Source: Promethearchaeota archaeon
GTDB lineage: Archaea > Asgardarchaeota > Lokiarchaeia > Sigyniarchaeales > SOKP01
Length of the DNA stretch: 64,000 nt
Direction of reading: 5' to 3'
Assembly (NCBI GenBank): GCA_019058445.1
Contig: JAHPZA010000004.1
Coordinates: 434,136-498,135 of the forward strand
Below are positions 46,537 through 57,213 of the stretch, piece by piece. The notes beneath the pieces are model-generated. The model searched no databases and was not told the DNA's origin. It worked only from the letters and a program-made list of their open reading frames with translations. How positions within the stretch are numbered: the first letter of the stretch is position 1; each line of letters opens with the position of its first letter. The translations under genes and the position numbers were made by a program.

Positions 46537-47907
46537 CTATATCTGTTTTTGAAGTTTTGCAATTTTTTTTTCTAGTTTTTTAATTCTTGAGTCGCTTTCG
46601 TTAAGAATTGAATAGTCTTCAAGCACTTTCAGCGCGATTTTATAATTACGTATAGCATTGATATAGTCATTATTTTTCTCAAATTTATCTCCCGCGTCTT
46701 CAGCATAATCTATTTCCATTTTCTTTATTTTTTTATCTAGTTCTAAAACCATAAATGAAATTTTGCCAATATCTTCTTGAAATTCGAACCCAGTTGCTAA
46801 ATATAGTGCTTTTTCATATTCTTTTTGAGCCTCTTTATATACTAAAGCTTTTTCGGCAGTTTGACCTTTCTTAATAAATGATGTCATTAATTTTTGTGCT
46901 TCTTCTGGATTTAAACTTTCAGCAGTATTTTTCAATTCATAAATCGCATTATTATTAGCAATTATAGGGGAGATTAATTTATTATTTGCCAATCGCATGG
47001 CATGAGATTCACGAAAGGATTTAACATTTTTCTCGGCAGTTTCAAGGGTGGTTGGAATTATGGCTTCCATCAATAATAGCTGATAAATCTCATAAAGGAT
47101 TACCTTCGCTTCAATATCTACAATTTTTTTTACTTCATTTAATATATTATAAATAAAAAAGAACTGCTTAGTGGCTAAATAATCTTTCGCAAATTTAATC
47201 ACTGCCCTTTGAATATAATTATTATTAATTGAATCTAAAACACTAGGGATAAGTGTATGTGAAAGTACCATGGGAAAAACTAATTTAACATTAAAAAATT
47301 CAGTAATAAAATCATTTGTGTTATCCGATTCGAGAGCTCCTGAAGAAATAACTTTAATAATATTATCTTTATATCTGATTTCGTAATTTTGTAAAAATTC
47401 GATTATCAGAGATTTTAAACTCTCAGATGCCTTATGATCCAGAACTAGGCAGATTCTAATATATTTTCCATTTCTTAAGATCACATTAAATGTTTTATAT
47501 TGCAATTCGTAGAATTGGTGATTCGCTACCTGATTTGAATAATTTGAACTCTCTCCCGATTCCGAAAAGGTTATATTCGCCTGTAAGAATCCTGATAATA
47601 ATTCTGTATCTACTCCAGCTCCTGAAATTGGGTAATTGGCAATTAATAATCCAGAATCTTTAGCCATTAATAAAATATGCTTTATATTTAATACGTCTAA
47701 AAATTTCTGCCAGATTAAATCGCGGAACATTTGGATACGTTTCTCTTCAGAATCCATTTCTTCGATTTTTATGTTATGATCTGCTTTTAAACCGAGTTTC
47801 TCCATTTGGGATTTAATGCATTCAGCACAATATTCAGGATATTTAATACACTCCTTTTTATCATATCCACAATTAAACCCTACACGACTTATCTGAAAAT
47901 AAACCAT
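46537..47907 (-). CDS. Asgard-type longin-like domain protein with N-terminal Cys motif, wHTH-like middle and C-terminal TPR/helical repeats
   Basis: HILLMAKDSGLLI...VDTELLSGFLQANITFS...ELQYKTFNVILRNGKYIRICLVLD pattern; YKEAQKEYEKAL and YINAIRNYKIAL repeats. Confidence 0.7.
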   Translation of the reverse strand: MVYFQISRVGFNCGYDKKECIKYPEYCAECIKSQMEKLGLKADHNIKIEEMDSEEKRIQMFRDLIWQKFLDVLNIKHILLMAKDSGLLIANYPISGAGVDTELLSGFLQANITFSESGESSNYSNQVANHQFYELQYKTFNVILRNGKYIRICLVLDHKASESLKSLIIEFLQNYEIRYKDNIIKVISSGALESDNTNDFITEFFNVKLVFPMVLSHTLIPSVLDSINNNYIQRAVIKFAKDYLATKQFFFIYNILNEVKKIVDIEAKVILYEIYQLLLMEAIIPTTLETAEKNVKSFRESHAMRLANNKLISPIIANNNAIYELKNTAESLNPEEAQKLMTSFIKKGQTAEKALVYKEAQKEYEKALYLATGFEFQEDIGKISFMVLELDKKIKKMEIDYAEDAGDKFEKNNDYINAIRNYKIALKVLEDYSILNESDSRIKKLEKKIAKLQKQI

Positions 47908-48286
47908 CTAAAGCACAAATTTAAAATTAGAGTTTTGTAATGAATTCTTATTTTTCTTATATAATTTGATTAAATTTGGGTTATAAAAATCTTTAGAAAT
48001 TACCAAGTTTTGCGACGTAGCAACGAAAAATTTAAAAATTTCATTATATTTTAAAAGCAGATTAGTTCTATAGAATTCTATTTAAAAGCCAATGCGTTTA
48101 ACCTAAAAATAGGTTCTCAATCCTATATAAATTCTATAAAAGAAAAAATATAATAATCCTAAAACATTAAAATTCAATTAATTTGATGGGGTTTTATGGT
48201 ATTATTTTCAATAGTATAATACCTTAATCTCAACAACTCAATTTAACAATAAACAACAAATTAGGATAAAATTTGAGGATTGAGAC

Positions 48287-51200
48287 ATGAGTAAATCTAT
48301 TTTTAACAAATCTATTTTAGTAATACTATTGGTAGGAATCTCATTAACTAGCGCTTTGAGTAATTATTCTTCAAAAACCGAAACCGAAAATCAAAATTCT
48401 TTAGAAAGGTACAATAATATATCATTAGAAACGGCTCAAAATTTTGAATTACTCCAAGATTTCGAAGCATCAACTTATTTTATATCACCAAATTCTTCAG
48501 AGGGTAGAAATGATGCAGTATTTTTTTCTTTTATGGCAAATAAAAGAGGAAATTTTACGATTCAAGCTCAGAATCATCCTAACTATATAGATGATACAGA
48601 ACTTACAGAAAGCCATATTAGTTTCGATAATCCTTATGGTACTAATATTTGGTACATAGCATATTCAGAAATTGATACGTTAAATCTTGGTCGATTCAAT
48701 ATAAGATTATTAAAAAGTGAGGATAATGGAAAGACGTGGTCTAATAGCTTAATCAGTAGTATTTATGCAGATATAGAAAATCCACTTGATTATAATACAT
48801 ATGTATCTGGAATTTCTATAGCTACTAACCCAAAAACAGGATTTTTAATTGTTTTAACATGGATTAACAAAACAAATCTTTCTTACTTTAGATCTTTTGA
48901 TAATGGAACAACATGGGAAGGTCCTGAACCAATCTTCAATTCAACACTAATGGGAACAGTTAATATATTTAAAGGATTTTTAGATCATCCGAGAATGGAT
49001 GCTGCGATACTAGAAAATGGATCAGTAATTATTGTTAGTGAAGCAACGGACAAAAATTTTTTTCCATTCATCTTTATTGAAAGTCCAAATAATGGAACTG
49101 AATGGAATTTACCCAAAAATGTGACTTGTGTAAACAATTTAAGAGCAAAAATTCCAAAAATACAAGTAGATTATAGTTCAAAAAAATATTGGTTAATGTG
49201 GAAATATGATAGTAATTATTTAACAGGAGGAAATGATACTATTCAATGGGCTGAATTCAATGAAACTCATAACTTTTATGCTGATGTTCAATATCTAAAT
49301 GTTTCGAATCTTGATTTGGACTATAATTTCGATTTCTACTATGATCATCATAATGACAAATTTAGAATAATATACTGTGATTATGACTATCCAATAACTT
49401 ATATAGAAAATTGGACGTGTGAAGATTTTTCAGCAAATTTTTGGGTAAAAACAAGATTGGGTTCATATACTCGTCAAAGTTCAATAATTAGTTCTAATAA
49501 TTACTTACATTATGTCTATTCTAAAGAAAACTATTTATTTTTTCTAGAGGATTATATCGGAAAAACGGATATTTATCAGTTCAAAGTTATACAAGATTAT
49601 ATTTATTGGGAGGTCAAGGGAACTTTTAATGAAAATGAGTTAATACAAATACCCTGGGATGGCAGAAAATCTGATTCGATATTAATCGAAGATTCATTAG
49701 TAAAGATTATTTTCACCGAAAATTATACTGGAACGGAAAAATTTCTTTTTATAACAATTGATAATGAAATTCCAGATTTTATGGCACTGGAACAGAAAAG
49801 ACACTATTTTAATCCTTTATCAACTAATATCACTTTATCAAATATTCCATGGGAGATTCTTCCATCCGAATCTTGTGAATTATTTTTGGAAGTATTAAGT
49901 AATAAAACGCAAATTAGCTCCTGGAGTCAAATAGTGGAAAATAATTGGGACGATAATGAGCCTAAAATTTTTATATCGGATACAAGAATAATTTATTGCC
50001 TTTATGAAAGTTTAGAAGCTGGTAGATCAATTCTTTACCTGATTAAATCTTATGATTTAGGTGTCACATGGTCAAATCCAATAAAAGTCTATGAAACCAC
50101 GGGAGGGCTTTATTACTACACTGGTGCAGCCATTGGTAGTGTTGTTCTTATATACATATATCATACTCATTATCAAAGAATCTTATATAGAAGTTTTGAT
50201 GAGGGATTTACATTTAGAGATGAAATTAATATCTATGATGCCACTTTATTTCCATCAAGTTCTTCAGGTGAAGTTGACTTCTTATTAACCAGAAATGGAA
50301 CTATGTTTTCAACATTTAAACGACATACATATGGTTCAAAACACACTGAATATTATATCCTAAAATCAAATGATCTAGGTAATAATTGGACCTTCATGGA
50401 ATTATTCAATATCACTAAAGACTATAATCCGAACTTACATCCCAAATTAACTTATGATTTTATTAATGACATAGTGTATTTAGCGATGCCACTAGATAAT
50501 TATGATCTTTTATCCAGTTTCGCCATCAATTTCTCGTTTTCAACATTTAATTTCAATGACAATAAATGGTCAGTCCTAGAAAGTATCCCTCTGGCAACAG
50601 GTACAATTTTCACACAGGATACTAATTTTATTGTTACAAGAGAAAATAAAACCGCAACACCTATAGTACGCTTAATTTATTTAGAAAATATAGAACTTCC
50701 AGAAAGAATATTTCATTATAAAGAAATTGTATCAGAGGATTTTGGTGTAAGTTGGGATGAGCCAAGAAATATAACTTTACCCAATTATTCTGATATAATT
50801 TCAAATGTGGATGGAATTTATTATGCCTCGACATTTTCAGATGGGAATGATATAGAGATTAATTTTAGAAGACAAGGAAAACTAGTCTACGTATCAAAGG
50901 CAATAATATCTTCATCTTTTAGTACGGAAATCACTTTTAACGGTATTGATGATTTCGGTGATTATATTGAAGAGGGCAATTATACTTATTATATTCATCT
51001 TAATGATTTTGCTGGAAACAGTATTTCAAATACTAGTTGGTTTTATGCTGATTATACTGCACCTAATATAACTGAATACTTTACTAATATAAATATTCCT
51101 CCGATCCCTCGCAATGACCTTATAATAACGGTCAATATAACTGAAAGTACAAATTGTACTGCCGTTCTGTATTATAAAAAAGATGGTGCTAGTTGGCAAA

Positions 51201-52846
51201 CGGAGGCGATGAATCCTATTGGTAATGGGTATTATACTGGTACAATTCCAGGTGACTCAACAACTAATCAGATTCAATATTACATATTAACTGAAGATCT
51301 TGCTGGAAATCAATTTATATTCGATAATAATGGAGATTATTATTCTTATGGTATGCCTAGCTTTGCTTGGGACAGTGAAGGACTGTTCAAAGAATCTAAA
51401 AGTTATTCTTCATCTCAAGATTACGAAATAACGATAGAAATTGAAAGTGATCTTGAATACGTTGATGAGGTTATCTTCCGTTATTCTTATGATGAAGGGG
51501 ATGAGTGGGAGGATTTAGAACTTGAGCAGAACAGTCCAGAATTTTCCGGTGAATTGGACGACATTCCTGGTGATCTTCGAGAGCTTCAATATAAAGTTAT
51601 AGTAATAGATATATATGGAAATGAACATGAATTAACCGATACTCGAGAAGTAGAGTTTTATCCAGAAGTTCCTAGTGTGACATTTGAGGAAAGAGATTTA
51701 ATAATTATATTAATAGCATCTGCCATTGTTGGATTTGTAGTTGCTATTGGATATATTAAACTTAAGAGTACTAGTCATGAGATGTTATATAAACAGATGT
51801 TCCTTAAAGATTATAAGAATAATTTAGAAAAAGCTGAAGAAGACATTAAAGAAAAATCAATTAAGAACATTATAGGACGATTTAAAAAGCAACCTGTAGA
51901 TTCTGATTTGATATCTTTTCAGGATAATAAAGCAACAACGCCTTTTACTAAAGTTTATTTCACATTTCTATGCGGGACAATTACAGTTTTTTTAATCGCA
52001 CTCTTGATATCAGTTATTGTACCTCAAGTCGGAATACTTCTACTTTCAGCAAGTCTGTTAATGGCAGTATTTGGTTACATGATACTTATGAGTCGGGATA
52101 TTTCTATTAACATTTATCTAGAACGAATTCATTTGAAAAACGTAGCACTTGAAATATTTCAAATATTTTTTATGTTTATTAATATTGTAGCAATCCTATT
52201 AGTCGGCTATACAATTGATTGGTTTAGATATTATCTTATTGAATCGACATTCGATGTTGGAGCTACATCAATTCCAAGGTTATACATTTCCACATTTGCT
52301 GTATTTTTTACCTCTTTAGTTCTAGTTGGTATTACAACTTATATTCAACTTAGAAAAACAGTTAAAAACCTTCAAAAGCAACGATCACAAGGGACCAGTC
52401 CAAATCTTTTATTATACTTAAAGGATCAAAATTCATCGCGTTTAATAACAAGATTAGGGTATAAGACAATAGTATTCTTAGTTACCGTTCTATTATCTGT
52501 TATAACTACTACTAATTTACTTACAGAAGAGACAGGTCGAGCATTGATAATCATTATTGTGCCTTTCATTATGGCAGGATTTATGACATTGTTAATACAT
52601 AGGTATTTTGAAATGAGATCTAAAAAAGAAAAGAAAGAAGATATGCGATTACCATTCAGCGATTCGAAAAAATTCTGTGGCAAATGTGGTGAGCAAATGT
52701 ATCTATCTAACAAATATTGTGGATCCTGTGGAGCTCAGCAAGTTTTTGAGGATGTACTTGGGACATATGTTTCAAGATGTATCGAATGTAATGCCCTTAT
52801 TAATGATAACTCGAAATATTGTACAGAATGCGGTAAAAAAATATAA
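48287..52846 (+). CDS. 1519-aa membrane protein: signal peptide, BNR/Asp-box propellers, Ig-like domains, 7 TM, C-terminal double zinc ribbon
   Basis: 7 SxD/NxGxxW/F boxes; FlgD-like WDG and FNG...EGNYTY; 7 hydrophobic helices; CGKC, CGSC, CIEC, CTEC. Confidence 0.8.
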   Translation: MSKSIFNKSILVILLVGISLTSALSNYSSKTETENQNSLERYNNISLETAQNFELLQDFEASTYFISPNSSEGRNDAVFFSFMANKRGNFTIQAQNHPNYIDDTELTESHISFDNPYGTNIWYIAYSEIDTLNLGRFNIRLLKSEDNGKTWSNSLISSIYADIENPLDYNTYVSGISIATNPKTGFLIVLTWINKTNLSYFRSFDNGTTWEGPEPIFNSTLMGTVNIFKGFLDHPRMDAAILENGSVIIVSEATDKNFFPFIFIESPNNGTEWNLPKNVTCVNNLRAKIPKIQVDYSSKKYWLMWKYDSNYLTGGNDTIQWAEFNETHNFYADVQYLNVSNLDLDYNFDFYYDHHNDKFRIIYCDYDYPITYIENWTCEDFSANFWVKTRLGSYTRQSSIISSNNYLHYVYSKENYLFFLEDYIGKTDIYQFKVIQDYIYWEVKGTFNENELIQIPWDGRKSDSILIEDSLVKIIFTENYTGTEKFLFITIDNEIPDFMALEQKRHYFNPLSTNITLSNIPWEILPSESCELFLEVLSNKTQISSWSQIVENNWDDNEPKIFISDTRIIYCLYESLEAGRSILYLIKSYDLGVTWSNPIKVYETTGGLYYYTGAAIGSVVLIYIYHTHYQRILYRSFDEGFTFRDEINIYDATLFPSSSSGEVDFLLTRNGTMFSTFKRHTYGSKHTEYYILKSNDLGNNWTFMELFNITKDYNPNLHPKLTYDFINDIVYLAMPLDNYDLLSSFAINFSFSTFNFNDNKWSVLESIPLATGTIFTQDTNFIVTRENKTATPIVRLIYLENIELPERIFHYKEIVSEDFGVSWDEPRNITLPNYSDIISNVDGIYYASTFSDGNDIEINFRRQGKLVYVSKAIISSSFSTEITFNGIDDFGDYIEEGNYTYYIHLNDFAGNSISNTSWFYADYTAPNITEYFTNINIPPIPRNDLIITVNITESTNCTAVLYYKKDGASWQTEAMNPIGNGYYTGTIPGDSTTNQIQYYILTEDLAGNQFIFDNNGDYYSYGMPSFAWDSEGLFKESKSYSSSQDYEITIEIESDLEYVDEVIFRYSYDEGDEWEDLELEQNSPEFSGELDDIPGDLRELQYKVIVIDIYGNEHELTDTREVEFYPEVPSVTFEERDLIIILIASAIVGFVVAIGYIKLKSTSHEMLYKQMFLKDYKNNLEKAEEDIKEKSIKNIIGRFKKQPVDSDLISFQDNKATTPFTKVYFTFLCGTITVFLIALLISVIVPQVGILLLSASLLMAVFGYMILMSRDISINIYLERIHLKNVALEIFQIFFMFINIVAILLVGYTIDWFRYYLIESTFDVGATSIPRLYISTFAVFFTSLVLVGITTYIQLRKTVKNLQKQRSQGTSPNLLLYLKDQNSSRLITRLGYKTIVFLVTVLLSVITTTNLLTEETGRALIIIIVPFIMAGFMTLLIHRYFEMRSKKEKKEDMRLPFSDSKKFCGKCGEQMYLSNKYCGSCGAQQVFEDVLGTYVSRCIECNALINDNSKYCTECGKKI

Positions 52847-52909: not shown

Positions 52910-53410
52910 TTAAGAATAATAAGAGTAGCTCTCTCTATCAAATCCGTGGATATATTCAATTACTATACCTTCAGGTCTTTGTTCAGGAGGTCTATATATA
53001 ATTTGTAAATTCGGAAAATATGCTCCAATTCCAGTTTTAGCTAAAATCATAGCAGGATGATCTGATTGTTTAAAAATTTCTTCACTTATTCTAAGAGTTA
53101 TCGCACGACATTGTTGTTCATCCCAGACTCCTAAAGAATGAATATATTCATGTAAGAGTATGTGATATGTATATGACCAGACTACTTCAAATGGTTGCGT
53201 TTCTAGAATCAGTTTTAATGGAGTTTTATTCATTACAATATCCGTTCCGGGAGGAAAATGCATTCCTCCTATAAATCCATGAGGTGTCATGCCCATTTCT
53301 GCAAGTCCTAAACTTAAACCAGCCCTATGCCTACCAGTAGTTTTTTTAACATCATTTTTCACTTTTTCAAATATTTCAGGCATTTGTTCCTTGAATTCTT
53401 GTAATTCCAT
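52910..53410 (-). CDS. Putative zinc metallopeptidase (HEXXH)
   Basis: HILLHEYIHSLG..DE. Confidence 0.75.
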   Translation of the reverse strand: MELQEFKEQMPEIFEKVKNDVKKTTGRHRAGLSLGLAEMGMTPHGFIGGMHFPPGTDIVMNKTPLKLILETQPFEVVWSYTYHILLHEYIHSLGVWDEQQCRAITLRISEEIFKQSDHPAMILAKTGIGAYFPNLQIIYRPPEQRPEGIVIEYIHGFDRESYSYYS

Positions 53411-53436
53411 AAAATCAACCTCTTTTTATTAGCCAA

Positions 53437-54261
53437 TTAGAAATCAAAAAACCAGAAATCCTTATCCTCCTTGAAGAAATCCATCATTTTAGATAGATCT
53501 TTCAATAAGGGCTCAATTGAGATCCTATTTTGAGCGCGTTCAATGGAATCCATATCTGAGTAGAACATATCATCTAATAAGTTATCGATGTCTATTCTTT
53601 TATAATATTTATTCGGATTGAAAAAAAGTGTATAAAAGATCTCTTCAATTAAATTTAGACTTTCTCTTATATTTTTTGCTTTAAATTGTCTTTTCTCAAT
53701 AGTTTCTCTTAATCTATTTCTGTATTTATCTTCTATTATGTTTTTTAATTCCGCTATAAAACACTGTTTATTTTGTAGTAAATCAGATCTTTCCAATTCT
53801 AGGTTCCTAATATTTCCCTCAATTTCTTTAATTCTTTCACCTAAAAATCTAATTTTTGCATCGGGTTGTTTAATTTTTTTATAATCAGGAGAACAGCCCG
53901 TATCCTTGAGCTGTATTATTTTACTGTCATCACTAATTTCAGAAACGTTATATTTCACACCGTAATAGTCTGGAGATATGTCGATGCTTAAAGATATATC
54001 GGTTTTTATCCGATAAGTTCCTCCCCTTTTATCATCCGTTTCAATTTTTTCAATGATTTCCTTTTCGCTTAAAAACACTAATTGGCTATGCACCGCTTGT
54101 CTTGATATACCCAATTCATTTGCTAATTCCGAAGTAGAATGGGGAACTTTAGCCAATTTTGCAAGAATTACTCTTCTGGTGGGATTTCCTAAAATTTCCA
54201 ACAAAGTATCTAAATTAATTGTTTTCTTACCTCTTTCATATTTTTCCACTTCTATTTTCAA
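53437..54261 (-). CDS. ArsR-type wHTH regulator with coiled coil (Phr/HSR1-like heat-shock regulator)
   Basis: ILGNPTRRVIL...SELANELGISRQAVHSQL; co-oriented with hsp20 and cdc48. Confidence 0.8.
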   Translation of the reverse strand: MKIEVEKYERGKKTINLDTLLEILGNPTRRVILAKLAKVPHSTSELANELGISRQAVHSQLVFLSEKEIIEKIETDDKRGGTYRIKTDISLSIDISPDYYGVKYNVSEISDDSKIIQLKDTGCSPDYKKIKQPDAKIRFLGERIKEIEGNIRNLELERSDLLQNKQCFIAELKNIIEDKYRNRLRETIEKRQFKAKNIRESLNLIEEIFYTLFFNPNKYYKRIDIDNLLDDMFYSDMDSIERAQNRISIEPLLKDLSKMMDFFKEDKDFWFFDF

Positions 54262-54293
54262 TCACTCCCTTTACTTAATAAAAATAAAAAAAA

Positions 54294-56525
54294 TTACCTA
54301 TAGAGTTCTTCAGAGGGTTCCTTCGAAGAAGTATCATAAGCTTTCTTTGCTCTATCCGCACCTTTCAGGATTTTTTGCACTGCCAAATCAAACTCATCTT
54401 TTGATATTTTAACTTTTTTCACTGATTCTGGATCGCTAGTATCAACATTATCATCTGCCAGAGTCTTTCGAATAGTCAAAAGAGTTGCTTCTTCACAGAT
54501 AGCTTGAATGTCTGCTCCTGTATAACCCTCCATATTCTCTGCCATTTTGCTAATATCTATATCATTAGCCAGAGGTTTGTTTTTAAGATGGATTTTATAA
54601 ATCTGTTCACGTGATTCTTGATCAGGCAAGGGAATTTCAACATGTCTCCCAAATCTTCCTGAACGCAACATTGCGGGATCAAGCATATCTGGTCTATTGG
54701 TAGCAGCAAGCAAGATTACATCTTTTAATCCTTCGAGACCATCCATTTCAGTGAGTAATTGTGAAACAACTTGCTCTGTCACCTGAGAGCTTGCAAATCT
54801 ACCTCTCATTCCCGCAATGGCATCTATTTCATCAAAGAAAATGATACAAGGTGCTGCAGATCTAGCCTTTCGAAATGTCTCTCTCACAGCTTTTTCGCTT
54901 TCTCCGACCCATTTAGATAAAAACTCTGGTCCTTTTACAGATATAAAATTCACCTCACTTTCATGAGCTAGTGCCTTAGCTATCAACGTCTTCCCACACC
55001 CAGGAGGACCATGGAGTAAAATACCATTTGGAGGTTTTGAATCCAAGTGTTTATAGAGTTCTGGGTACTTCAATGGCCATTCGATAATCTCTCTTAATTG
55101 TAGTCTAGCATCTTCTAATCCTCCAACATCTTCCCAAGTTTCTGTAGGTTGAGTTATTAATACCTCTCTTAGGGCAGATGGCTCAATACTATTTAAAGAG
55201 TGTTCAAAGTTTTCCATCTTTATTTGAATATTGCCTAAAATTTCAGCGGGAATTGGTTTATCTAAGTCAATTTTCGGTAAGATTTCTCTTATGGCAAGCA
55301 TTGCCGCCTCCTTAGCTAATGCTTCCACATCAGCTCCTACAAAACCATGTGTTTTTTCAGCCATTTTTTGTAAATCTACATCTGAATAGAGGGGCATTCC
55401 TCGTGTATGAATTAATAATATTTCATATCTGCCATCAGTATCAGGAACTCCAATTTCAATTTCTCTATCAAATCTTCCCGGTCTTCTTAATGCGGGATCA
55501 ATGTCATTCACTCTATTTGTGGCCCCAATAACTATGATTTCTCCCCGTCCTTCTAAGCCATCCATCAAAGAAAGTAATTGGGCAACCACTCTTCTTTCTA
55601 CTTCTCCAGTGACTTCCCCTCTTTTTGGGGCAATTGAATCTAATTCATCTATAAATATAATTGATGGTGCATTTTCTTTGGCTTCAATAAACACCTTACG
55701 GAGATTTTCTTCGCTTTGCCCATAAAATTTGCTCATAATTTCAGGACCGCTGATTGTTATAAAGTGGGCATCTGTTTCGTATGCTACTGCTCTTGCTAGC
55801 AATGTTTTTCCCGTACCAGGAGGTCCATGAAGTAACACTCCTTTAGGGGGATTAATCCCTATTCTTTGGAATAATTCGGGATGTCTAATTGGTAATTCAA
55901 TCATTTCACGTATTTTCTGAATTTCCTCTTCTAATCCTCCAATATCTTCGTAGGTTACTCTGGCTTTCTCAAGTTCAATGATTTCTTTATGGCTTTTTTC
56001 ACTCAATATGATCTTTGTATCCAAATGAATTCTCACGGCTTCCGCTTTGGGACTATACTCTACCACTACAAGATCAACTCTGCGACCCATGGCATAAAAG
56101 CTAAGGATATCTCCTTTCGTTATTACACGGTTTTCTAATTTTCTTGCTAATTGTTGAGAATTTTTAATGATTACCGTCTCTTCTAAACCAGCAAAGGTCA
56201 CTCTTGTAGCTAACGCAGCATCAATCTTGCGTATTTGTACTATATCATCTAGGGAAGTGTTTATATTCCTTCTTAAGGATGGATCCATACGGATTATATT
56301 AGTTCCCTTATCTTCTCTTCTGCCGGGATATAATAATGCGGCAGTTTTCCTCTTTGCTGAAGTTGAAGCATGAAAAATCTCTATCACATCTCCCGTTCTT
56401 AAATTCATTTCCGCCTCGACATCGGGGTCAATTCTGACAATGCCTCTTCCAGCATCTTCTTTAAATGCATCTTTTACTCTTAATTTATTCTCCTTACCTT
56501 CGTAGCCCCTTGTCACACCACTCAT
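54294..56525 (-). CDS. cdc48: CDC48/VCP-family AAA+ ATPase
   Basis: N-domain [10 protein letters not shown]; Walker A GPPGTGKT and GPPGCGKT, Walker B IFIDE/IFFDE, two SRH motifs; C-terminal LYR (HbYX). Confidence 0.97.
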
Positions 56526-56595
56526 TTTTTTTCCTCACATTACATATATTATTTTTATTATAATAAATAATTAAATTGATTAATTGAAAATTTAC

Positions 56596-57213
56596 TTATG
56601 ACCTCCATATTTTCAAAGTAGCAATTCCATTGTTCACTTCTAAATCATATTTTTTTAAAGAGGTCTTAAATGGTAAGCGAACTTCTTTAAGATATTTTCG
56701 AATTTGACTTTGTGCTGTTATGTTAATCTTGTTTCCTTCTTGATTTAAATTTAATTTGATATCTTCCTTTTCTATTCCAGGAACTTCAAGTATAATTTGA
56801 GTATAATCAGTAAAATCGTTTATTTCAGTAATAGGTTCAGCGTTATCTGATTCTTCCTCTTGCTCGGTTGGTTTCAACGCTATTTTTGAAGCATCAATTA
56901 ATTCAATACGATTTGGATGCTTTAATATCTTGAATCTTGGATCTTTTCTAAAATTAATTCCTTTTAAATACTTATTGAGCTCTTTTTCATCTATGTCCCC
57001 TTCAATCTTTATTTCTGGCTTATCCATTCCTGTCTCAAAGTGATATGACACTTTATATCCTTTTGAATGCTTCTTTTTAGGATCTAGGTGCTTTCCCATT
57101 TCTGGAAAAATATAAAAATCCATATCAAATAATTTTGAATCAAAATTAAAAAATTTCTTAAATTGGTCGAAAATATCTTCATAATCATCATAATCGTCCG
57201 AAAATTTTACCAC
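56596..57213 (-). CDS. Hsp20/alpha-crystallin small heat-shock protein
   Basis: EPITEI...LEVPGIEKEDI...RKYLKEVRLP...NNGIATL. Confidence 0.85.
   Translation of the reverse strand: MVKFSDDYDDYEDIFDQFKKFFNFDSKLFDMDFYIFPEMGKHLDPKKKHSKGYKVSYHFETGMDKPEIKIEGDIDEKELNKYLKGINFRKDPRFKILKHPNRIELIDASKIALKPTEQEEESDNAEPITEINDFTDYTQIILEVPGIEKEDIKLNLNQEGNKINITAQSQIRKYLKEVRLPFKTSLKKYDLEVNNGIATLKIWRS

Follow-up and report, generated by a model that had tools for sequence, protein, structure and literature searches.

The means by which Asgard archaea sense surfaces and partner cells, and hold on to them, are an open question in the study of eukaryogenesis, and a gene in a 64,000-nucleotide stretch of a Promethearchaeota archaeon genome (GCA_019058445.1, contig JAHPZA010000004.1, positions 434,136 to 498,135 of the forward strand; hereafter the window) raises it in concrete form. 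The gene encodes a 1519-amino-acid (aa) protein with a large ectodomain, seven transmembrane (TM) helices and a C-terminal zinc ribbon, and it is divergent from a gene for a soluble, longin-like protein of 456 aa. A first-pass annotation had placed both open reading frames (ORFs) as they stand in Table 1 and had proposed that they form a two-gene surface-sensing module. Is the large protein a receptor, of what kind, and is its neighbor its partner? Our analysis shows that it belongs to a genuine Asgard family of surface proteins, receptor-like in shape and without a name, which are adhesion-type receptors in outline and not G-protein-coupled receptors (GPCRs). The members share a conserved and separable six-helix core that carries exchangeable ectodomains, and the adjacent longin protein is not a dedicated partner.

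Architecture and topology of the large protein

Hydropathy analysis yielded seven hydrophobic segments near the C-terminus, starting near residues 1139, 1227, 1250, 1288, 1332, 1395 and 1419, and zero within the ectodomain. In an alignment of 111 rows, with 54-111 for each segment, the fraction of Lys plus Arg is 0.21-0.26 in the four inside segments versus 0.02-0.06 in the three loops on the outside, and the ectodomain contains 29 sequons versus 15.6 +/- 3.5 in 1000 shuffled sequences (maximum 31). The seven segments, the positive-inside bias and the sequon excess bear out the earlier proposal of a large ectodomain followed by seven helices, and the N-out, C-in topology is well supported. The double zinc ribbon, which was also predicted at the outset, therefore lies in the cytoplasm. 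The protein is a giant of the cell surface, with an ectodomain that is probably sugar-coated.

The seven helices are arranged as 1+6, an anchor helix plus a separable core, rather than as one GPCR-like bundle. At one locus (L030, genome G003) a 941-aa ORF comprises the signal peptide, the ectodomain and the equivalent of TM1, and directly behind it starts a 345-aa ORF that comprises TM2-TM7 and the ribbon. Two further relatives, P0094 (60% identity) and P0085 (47%), begin at the same split position and group with the L030 core; their upstream genes lie outside the view. Short entries such as P0086 and P0050 were not counted as split genes, P0086 being part of a longer frame in locus L029. The linker between TM1 and the core has a mean identity of 24% among close relatives and is shorter in many relatives. 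The core is the most conserved part of the protein, with 55-66% identity among close relatives versus 25-47% in windows of the propellers, the least conserved part. The core spans about 220 residues and is present in a single copy in the source genome. A confident model of the membrane part (predicted local distance difference test score, 88) shows TM3-TM6 as a long four-helix bundle, with TM5 and TM6 extending into the cytoplasm and an outer helix and a beta-hairpin between TM4 and TM5. Near-invariant core residues are G1307, W1312, P1330, S1343, K1393, F1397 and P1426; a polar stripe runs along TM5, and K1379 and K1393 are conserved on the cytoplasmic side.

The six-helix core belongs to no named family. 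A Foldseek search with the membrane model gave 0 matches at E ≤ 0.001, and the ESM Atlas held no usable match to the membrane part. Core profiles compared with PDB sequences, Pfam and NCBIfam produced weak, scattered matches, each in 1-2 of the 27 members. Among these, LapA_dom (E 0.09-0.13) is suggestive of a TM-hairpin-TM-coil element only; the strongest, to SecDF (E 1e-5), was confined to one member and shared no pattern, and we treated it as a composition effect. Homodimer prediction with aa 1127-1519 (0.02, 0.36 and 0.33 in three runs, against a mark of 0.42 and 0.00 in three controls) spoke neither for nor against self-association.

In the ectodomain, a signal peptide, two Asp-box propellers each inserted in an immunoglobulin (Ig) module, and two further Ig-like units were identified, all as first annotated. 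Most full-length relatives likewise have a signal peptide. In HHalign, the two discontinuous Ig modules match one another at 99.0% (E 3e-18), and the two membrane-proximal units do so at 97.3%. The FlgD label is based on family matches to PDB 3c12 (E 0.002) and on a Pfam FlgD_ig hit in relative P0048. Both propellers have a six-bladed, sialidase/GH93-like fold with Asp boxes.

Table 1. Features of the large protein gene and its divergent neighbor (positions in the window)
Feature	Position	Strand	Remark
Gene for 1519-aa surface protein with 1+6 membrane helices and double zinc ribbon	48287..52846	+	
Signal peptide, about aa 1-25	48287..48361	+	Hydropathy peak
Module A: FlgD-like Ig domain, aa 52-100 and 438-496, split by propeller A	48440..49774	+	
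Asp-box beta-propeller A, aa about 96-437, sialidase-type fold, without RIP motif	48572..49597	+	
Module B: second FlgD-like Ig domain, aa 497-545 and 855-926, split by propeller B	49775..51064	+	
Asp-box beta-propeller B, aa about 542-865, homologous to A	49910..50881	+	
Two membrane-proximal Ig-like units, aa 927-1024 and 1025-1129	51065..51673	+	All-beta in model
TM1, ectodomain anchor helix; stays with the ectodomain gene in the split form	51698..51757	+	
Basic, poorly conserved cytoplasmic linker, aa 1158-1222	51758..51952	+	
Six-helix core, TM2-TM7	51953..52600	+	
Double zinc ribbon, four CxxC pairs, cytoplasmic	52676..52831	+	Pfam DZR above cut-off
Soluble 456-aa protein, longin-like	46537..47907	-	
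Divergent intergenic region, 379 bp	47908..48286	.	

Distribution of the family and exchange of its ectodomains

A cluster-representative search recovered 115 proteins, and the core profile matched 41 of 201 Asgard genomes, in 9 of the 25 families sampled, with 28 of 48 genomes positive in family f12. Those relatives that carry a name come from Asgard records, chiefly Promethearchaeota, and their annotation reads hypothetical or zinc-ribbon protein. Phage records gave no match, no RNA data set was among the public runs listed as containing it, and searches of an incomplete paper library, with supplements outside its view, found no description of the family. Structure clusters common to Asgards and eukaryotes, labelled as GPCR or 7TM, may hold members of it (10.64898/2026.10.28.762692). 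The core was not found in the single-contig genomes G044, G045, G050 and G055 (63-93% complete), nor in G006, in a search that had no positive control of its own but whose query matched in other searches.

What varies is the domains around the core. Among the 61 representatives of 1300 aa or more, which we took as full-length, the double zinc ribbon is present in 40 and a set of at least three Asp boxes in 38; the two features coincide in 36, and 19 lack both. Combinations of FG-GAP repeats and Ig domains were identified in 9 of 22 relatives picked for scanning and at 2 further loci. In a tree of 130 of the 143 core sequences (after removal of duplicates and of cores shorter than 205 aa), all 80 ribbon-bearing rows fall within one group of 83 (support 95/65, unstarred). 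Zinc ribbons on membrane proteins are known from envelope-stress systems, as an analogy only (PMC11237479).

Some relatives show further variation. Ectodomains at L030:2743-5568, which had no Pfam hit, and L123:6345-9246 resemble beta-helix repeats by eye and may represent a third kind of ectodomain found with this core. Locus L024 (G039:C191) has two nearby paralogues on one contig, one of them without a zinc ribbon, and consecutive locus tags of relatives point to further tandem pairs. All five FG-GAP-type members at loci L075-L079 of family f12, from genomes of two genera only, face a membrane protein of about 500-550 aa and a response-regulator-like gene, and are divergent from a gene for an oxidoreductase-like protein of 453-488 aa.

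Proposed coupling across the membrane and competing readings

We tentatively favor a mechanism in which the large protein binds at the cell surface and contains its own unit for transmembrane coupling. The glycosylated ectodomain would bind, but not cleave, a glycan or the surface of a cell or particle. Load or occupancy would be passed to the TM3-TM6 bundle by TM1 and by the core's outer loop, with its Trp-Phe helix and beta-hairpin, and the long cytoplasmic ends of TM5 and TM6, together with the zinc ribbon where present, would recruit or release a putative cytoplasmic partner. Such a coupling role is supported by the presence of the same core under Asp-box or FG-GAP/Ig ectodomains. In addition, a bare anchor needs one helix, and the retention of six with near-invariant residues, the polar stripe on TM5 and the conserved cytoplasmic-side lysines also argues for coupling. 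The gap in conservation between core and propellers, the separate core ORF at L030, the absence of sialidase motifs, the positive-inside bias and the sequon excess count in its favor as well. The family offers a defined object for study: a conserved, unnamed membrane unit with swappable binding ectodomains and a few near-invariant residues for mutation.

A broader proposal, which we regard as doubtful, is that the core is a transmembrane signaling unit specific to Asgards and predates the divergence of several Asgard classes. It would carry interchangeable ligand-binding ectodomains (Asp-box, integrin-like FG-GAP/Ig and perhaps beta-helix) and would convert contact at the surface into a signal within the cell, or into an ion flux, via a Cys-loop-like four-helix bundle, an adhesion-receptor design independent of GPCRs. 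If true, such a design would have been reached without GPCRs in the closest relatives of eukaryotes.

Parallels to a coupling mechanism exist in other systems. The 7TMR-DISM and 7TMR-HD receptors and the RsgI-type carbohydrate-sensing anti-sigma factors couple a carbohydrate-type outer domain across the membrane to an inner module, as the large protein may do. Unlike these, it has no enzymatic output domain and no linked sigma factor, and its core gave no Pfam or NCBIfam hit to these families. For the ectodomain, the top Foldseek matches were the ectodomains of the single-pass receptors ROS1/Sevenless, LRP2 and SorCS2, in which propellers are strung with beta-sandwich domains; the TM-scores were only 0.11-0.19, and the likeness is therefore one of architecture, an analogy.

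Several observations weigh against the coupling mechanism. The binding and signaling that we infer for the large protein are putative, and across the loci of 38 receptor ORFs neither an enzymatic or DNA-binding output domain nor a conserved partner gene was found. The gene is patchy, with the core in 19 of 151 genomes of the class, and the ribbon is absent from 21 of the 61 full-length relatives. The four-helix match of the core bundle, described below, is generic. Furthermore, the homologue in genome G009 (L023:7296-11885) has one in-frame TAG at codon 180, and in genome G006 (99% complete) the gene is missing at its site (L040), with no match elsewhere. The longin protein is nearly identical between these two genomes. 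The stop codon and the absence suggest either that the receptor decayed and was lost in that lineage or that the stop in G009 is an artefact of sequencing.

Some of the same facts would fit a structural adhesin or surface appendage, in which the ectodomain attaches the cell and the core transmits no signal, serving only to anchor the ectodomain, cluster it or tie it to the cell interior. The large glycosylated Ig/propeller stalk, the lack of an output domain, the dispensable ribbon and the patchy presence with some tandem paralogues are all consistent with this. However, the source genome anchors other large ectodomains by a single helix, and the near-invariant polar and charged residues of the core exceed the needs of an anchor; we consider a purely structural role unlikely.

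A second alternative is that the ectodomain gates TM3-TM6, which would either oligomerize to form a pore or transport a lipid or solute. The transmembrane domain of Cys-loop receptors (GluCl, GlyR, 5-HT3A, nAChR, GLIC and ZAC) is also a four-helix bundle, has the same helix order and an inner extension, and superimposes on the core bundle with a root-mean-square deviation (rmsd) of about 4 Å over 116-140 residues, with Z within the background of bundles. In contrast to these receptors, the large protein has three extra helices, no match to their ligand-binding beta-sandwich and no sequence signal. We regard a ligand-gated channel or transporter as quite improbable.

A surface glycoside hydrolase, with the membrane part as an anchor or uptake coupler, would be in keeping with the sialidase/GH93-like fold of both propellers, with profile matches of the ectodomain to xyloglucanases and sialidases, and with acidic residues kept among close relatives (for example E108, E577, D855 and E857). 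GH33 sialidases and the GH93 arabinanase likewise have six-bladed Asp-box propellers, but here there are two, each inside an Ig domain and of low conservation. No RIP motif is present, nor any R.P in the ectodomain, and three conserved arginines per propeller (the sialidase Arg triad) were not found: propeller A has no Arg at ≥75% conservation, and in propeller B R635, R785 and R862 reach 75% only among close relatives, being shared by just 4, 1 and 1 of 28 distant relatives. In addition, FG-GAP propellers replace the Asp-box ones in some relatives. A hydrolase is therefore very unlikely, and the initial idea of an ectodomain for sensing or binding, not for cutting, is upheld.

A further reading has the receptor act on a small GTPase by way of the longin-TPR protein encoded divergently beside it. 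The pair is kept in G003 and G009, and probably in G008, and several fusions of an ectodomain and a TM helix to a longin-like domain in the source genome indicate that longins do serve as inner tails. Yet among the 29 of the 38 receptor ORFs that have an upstream gene in view, a longin-like gene lies directly upstream in none by script, and in one when G009 is counted, where the receptor's own broken N-terminal piece sits between the two. Seen from nine longin loci, the receptor is adjacent in two (G003 and G009), probably in one (G008, a signal-peptide ORF at a contig end) and not in six; in G006, the longin gene adjoins a 166-aa gene with no receptor between. All adjacent cases fall within the source genus, where the downstream genes are also syntenic, and in all four genomes of other genera that have both genes (G015, G259, G275 and G292) these are on different contigs. 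Nor do the two genes co-occur more often than expected by chance: of 61 genomes, the receptor is present in 14 and the longin orthologue in 15, with 5 containing both (P = 0.22, related genomes not being independent), so that 10 of the 15 longin-orthologue genomes show no detected receptor. Moreover, no fusion of core and longin was present among the loci scanned, and an iterated profile of the 456-aa protein recovers 34 ORFs in the source genome, itself included; a longin neighbor is therefore not rare. The proposed two-gene module thus loses its conserved linkage outside the source genus. The pairing is not supported, the two genes are neighbors by genus-level synteny, and we hold a dedicated longin pathway to be highly improbable; the pairing should not be carried forward. 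In strain MK-D1, GTPase and longin genes are mostly outside operons (PMC10933270), so linkage is a weak guide and an unlinked physical interaction is possible.

The large protein resembles adhesion GPCRs (class B2) in its large multi-domain extracellular region, seven TM helices, outside N-terminus and cytoplasmic tail. Also, the GPCR-labelled structure clusters mentioned above mean that such proteins may exist in Asgards. It differs in that its 1+6 helices are built around a long four-helix bundle, in lacking G-protein coupling motifs, and in that the units before TM1 are two homologous Ig-like domains, not GAIN/GPS, for which there was no Pfam hit at E ≤ 1 and no GPS-type motif. GAIN is the defining feature of adhesion GPCRs (PMC11615224 and PMC10622838). 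The fold comparison suggested in the first-pass annotation, which had not claimed GPCR homology, gave no superposition of the membrane model on aligned GPCRs (rmsd 10-17 Å); it covers classes A and C, no class B2 chain being among the matches listed. No GPCR or rhodopsin was among the 50 matches listed by a wide VIA search, a result that excludes nothing. Remote homology to adhesion or other GPCRs is largely refuted already and has a negligible chance of being correct, and a seven-helix count alone does not make an Asgard GPCR.

The longin-like protein and neighboring genes

The 456-aa protein consists of an N-terminal four-Cys motif, a longin-like domain (aa about 60-195), a middle domain and a helical, TPR/MIT-like tail. 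First described as longin plus TPR, it has no direct Pfam longin or TPR hit, and 'longin-like' is supported only transitively, because three of the four stand-alone members of its profile that were scanned pass Fuz_longin_1. The match of the profile to TRAPP BET5 reached only E 0.58. The best PDB sequence match (alignment A7) was to an entry named Dandelion (9wwz, E 0.013), on which a paper search gave no lead, and the ESM Atlas returned one unnamed archaeal cluster. Expanded longin sets have been described in Asgards (PMC10933270, PMC11188069), with about 41 longin domains in Loki genomes (PMC10933270) and proteins that combine longin, TPR, Ig and HTH domains (PMC11188069). The 456-aa protein shares with Asgard longin-domain proteins the profile link to Fuz_longin_1 ORFs, but has an extra N-terminal four-Cys motif. 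The GP motif, which characterizes GAP-type longins (PMC12290439), was not seen, the conserved Gly of the first hairpin having no Pro after it. Cys13, Cys20, Cys27 and Cys30 (window 47818-47871, minus strand) are invariant in 10 of 10 longin orthologues and may form a metal or Fe-S site ahead of the longin domain.

The tighter links between surface and longin in the source genome are TM-longin fusion proteins. Five proteins of 733-1676 aa (G000:C9:51572-54928, C10:91438-96465, C3:127669-131901, C9:82983-85181 and C6:571987-574977; loci L102-L105 and L118) have a hydrophobic segment at the N-terminus and a large ectodomain, followed by a single TM helix and, in the cytoplasm, a longin-like domain akin to the 456-aa protein; L103 ends in a similar helical tail. 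The middle domain of the 456-aa protein is common to the TM-longin fusions. Four multi-pass membrane proteins (G000:C3:40116-41189, C4:393013-394332, C6:512984-514087 and C4:263044-265314; L107-L110), with 7, 7, 5 or more, and 11 hydrophobic segments, are fused to a C-terminal longin-like domain and have no Pfam hit. Direct 7TM-longin fusions of this type fit the idea of the first-pass annotation better than the gene pair does.

The intergenic region holds an imperfect palindrome (window 48008-48029), about 100 bp upstream of the longin start, that is kept in G000, G003 and G008, not in G009 or G006; it could be a regulator site. Beyond the receptor gene, the minus strand at window 52910-57213 encodes a 166-aa HExxH protein without a Pfam hit, followed by helix-turn-helix-regulator-, CDC48- and small heat-shock-like genes (labels by eye). 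Synteny of this block extends to G003, G008 and G009, and that of its first two genes to G006 as well.

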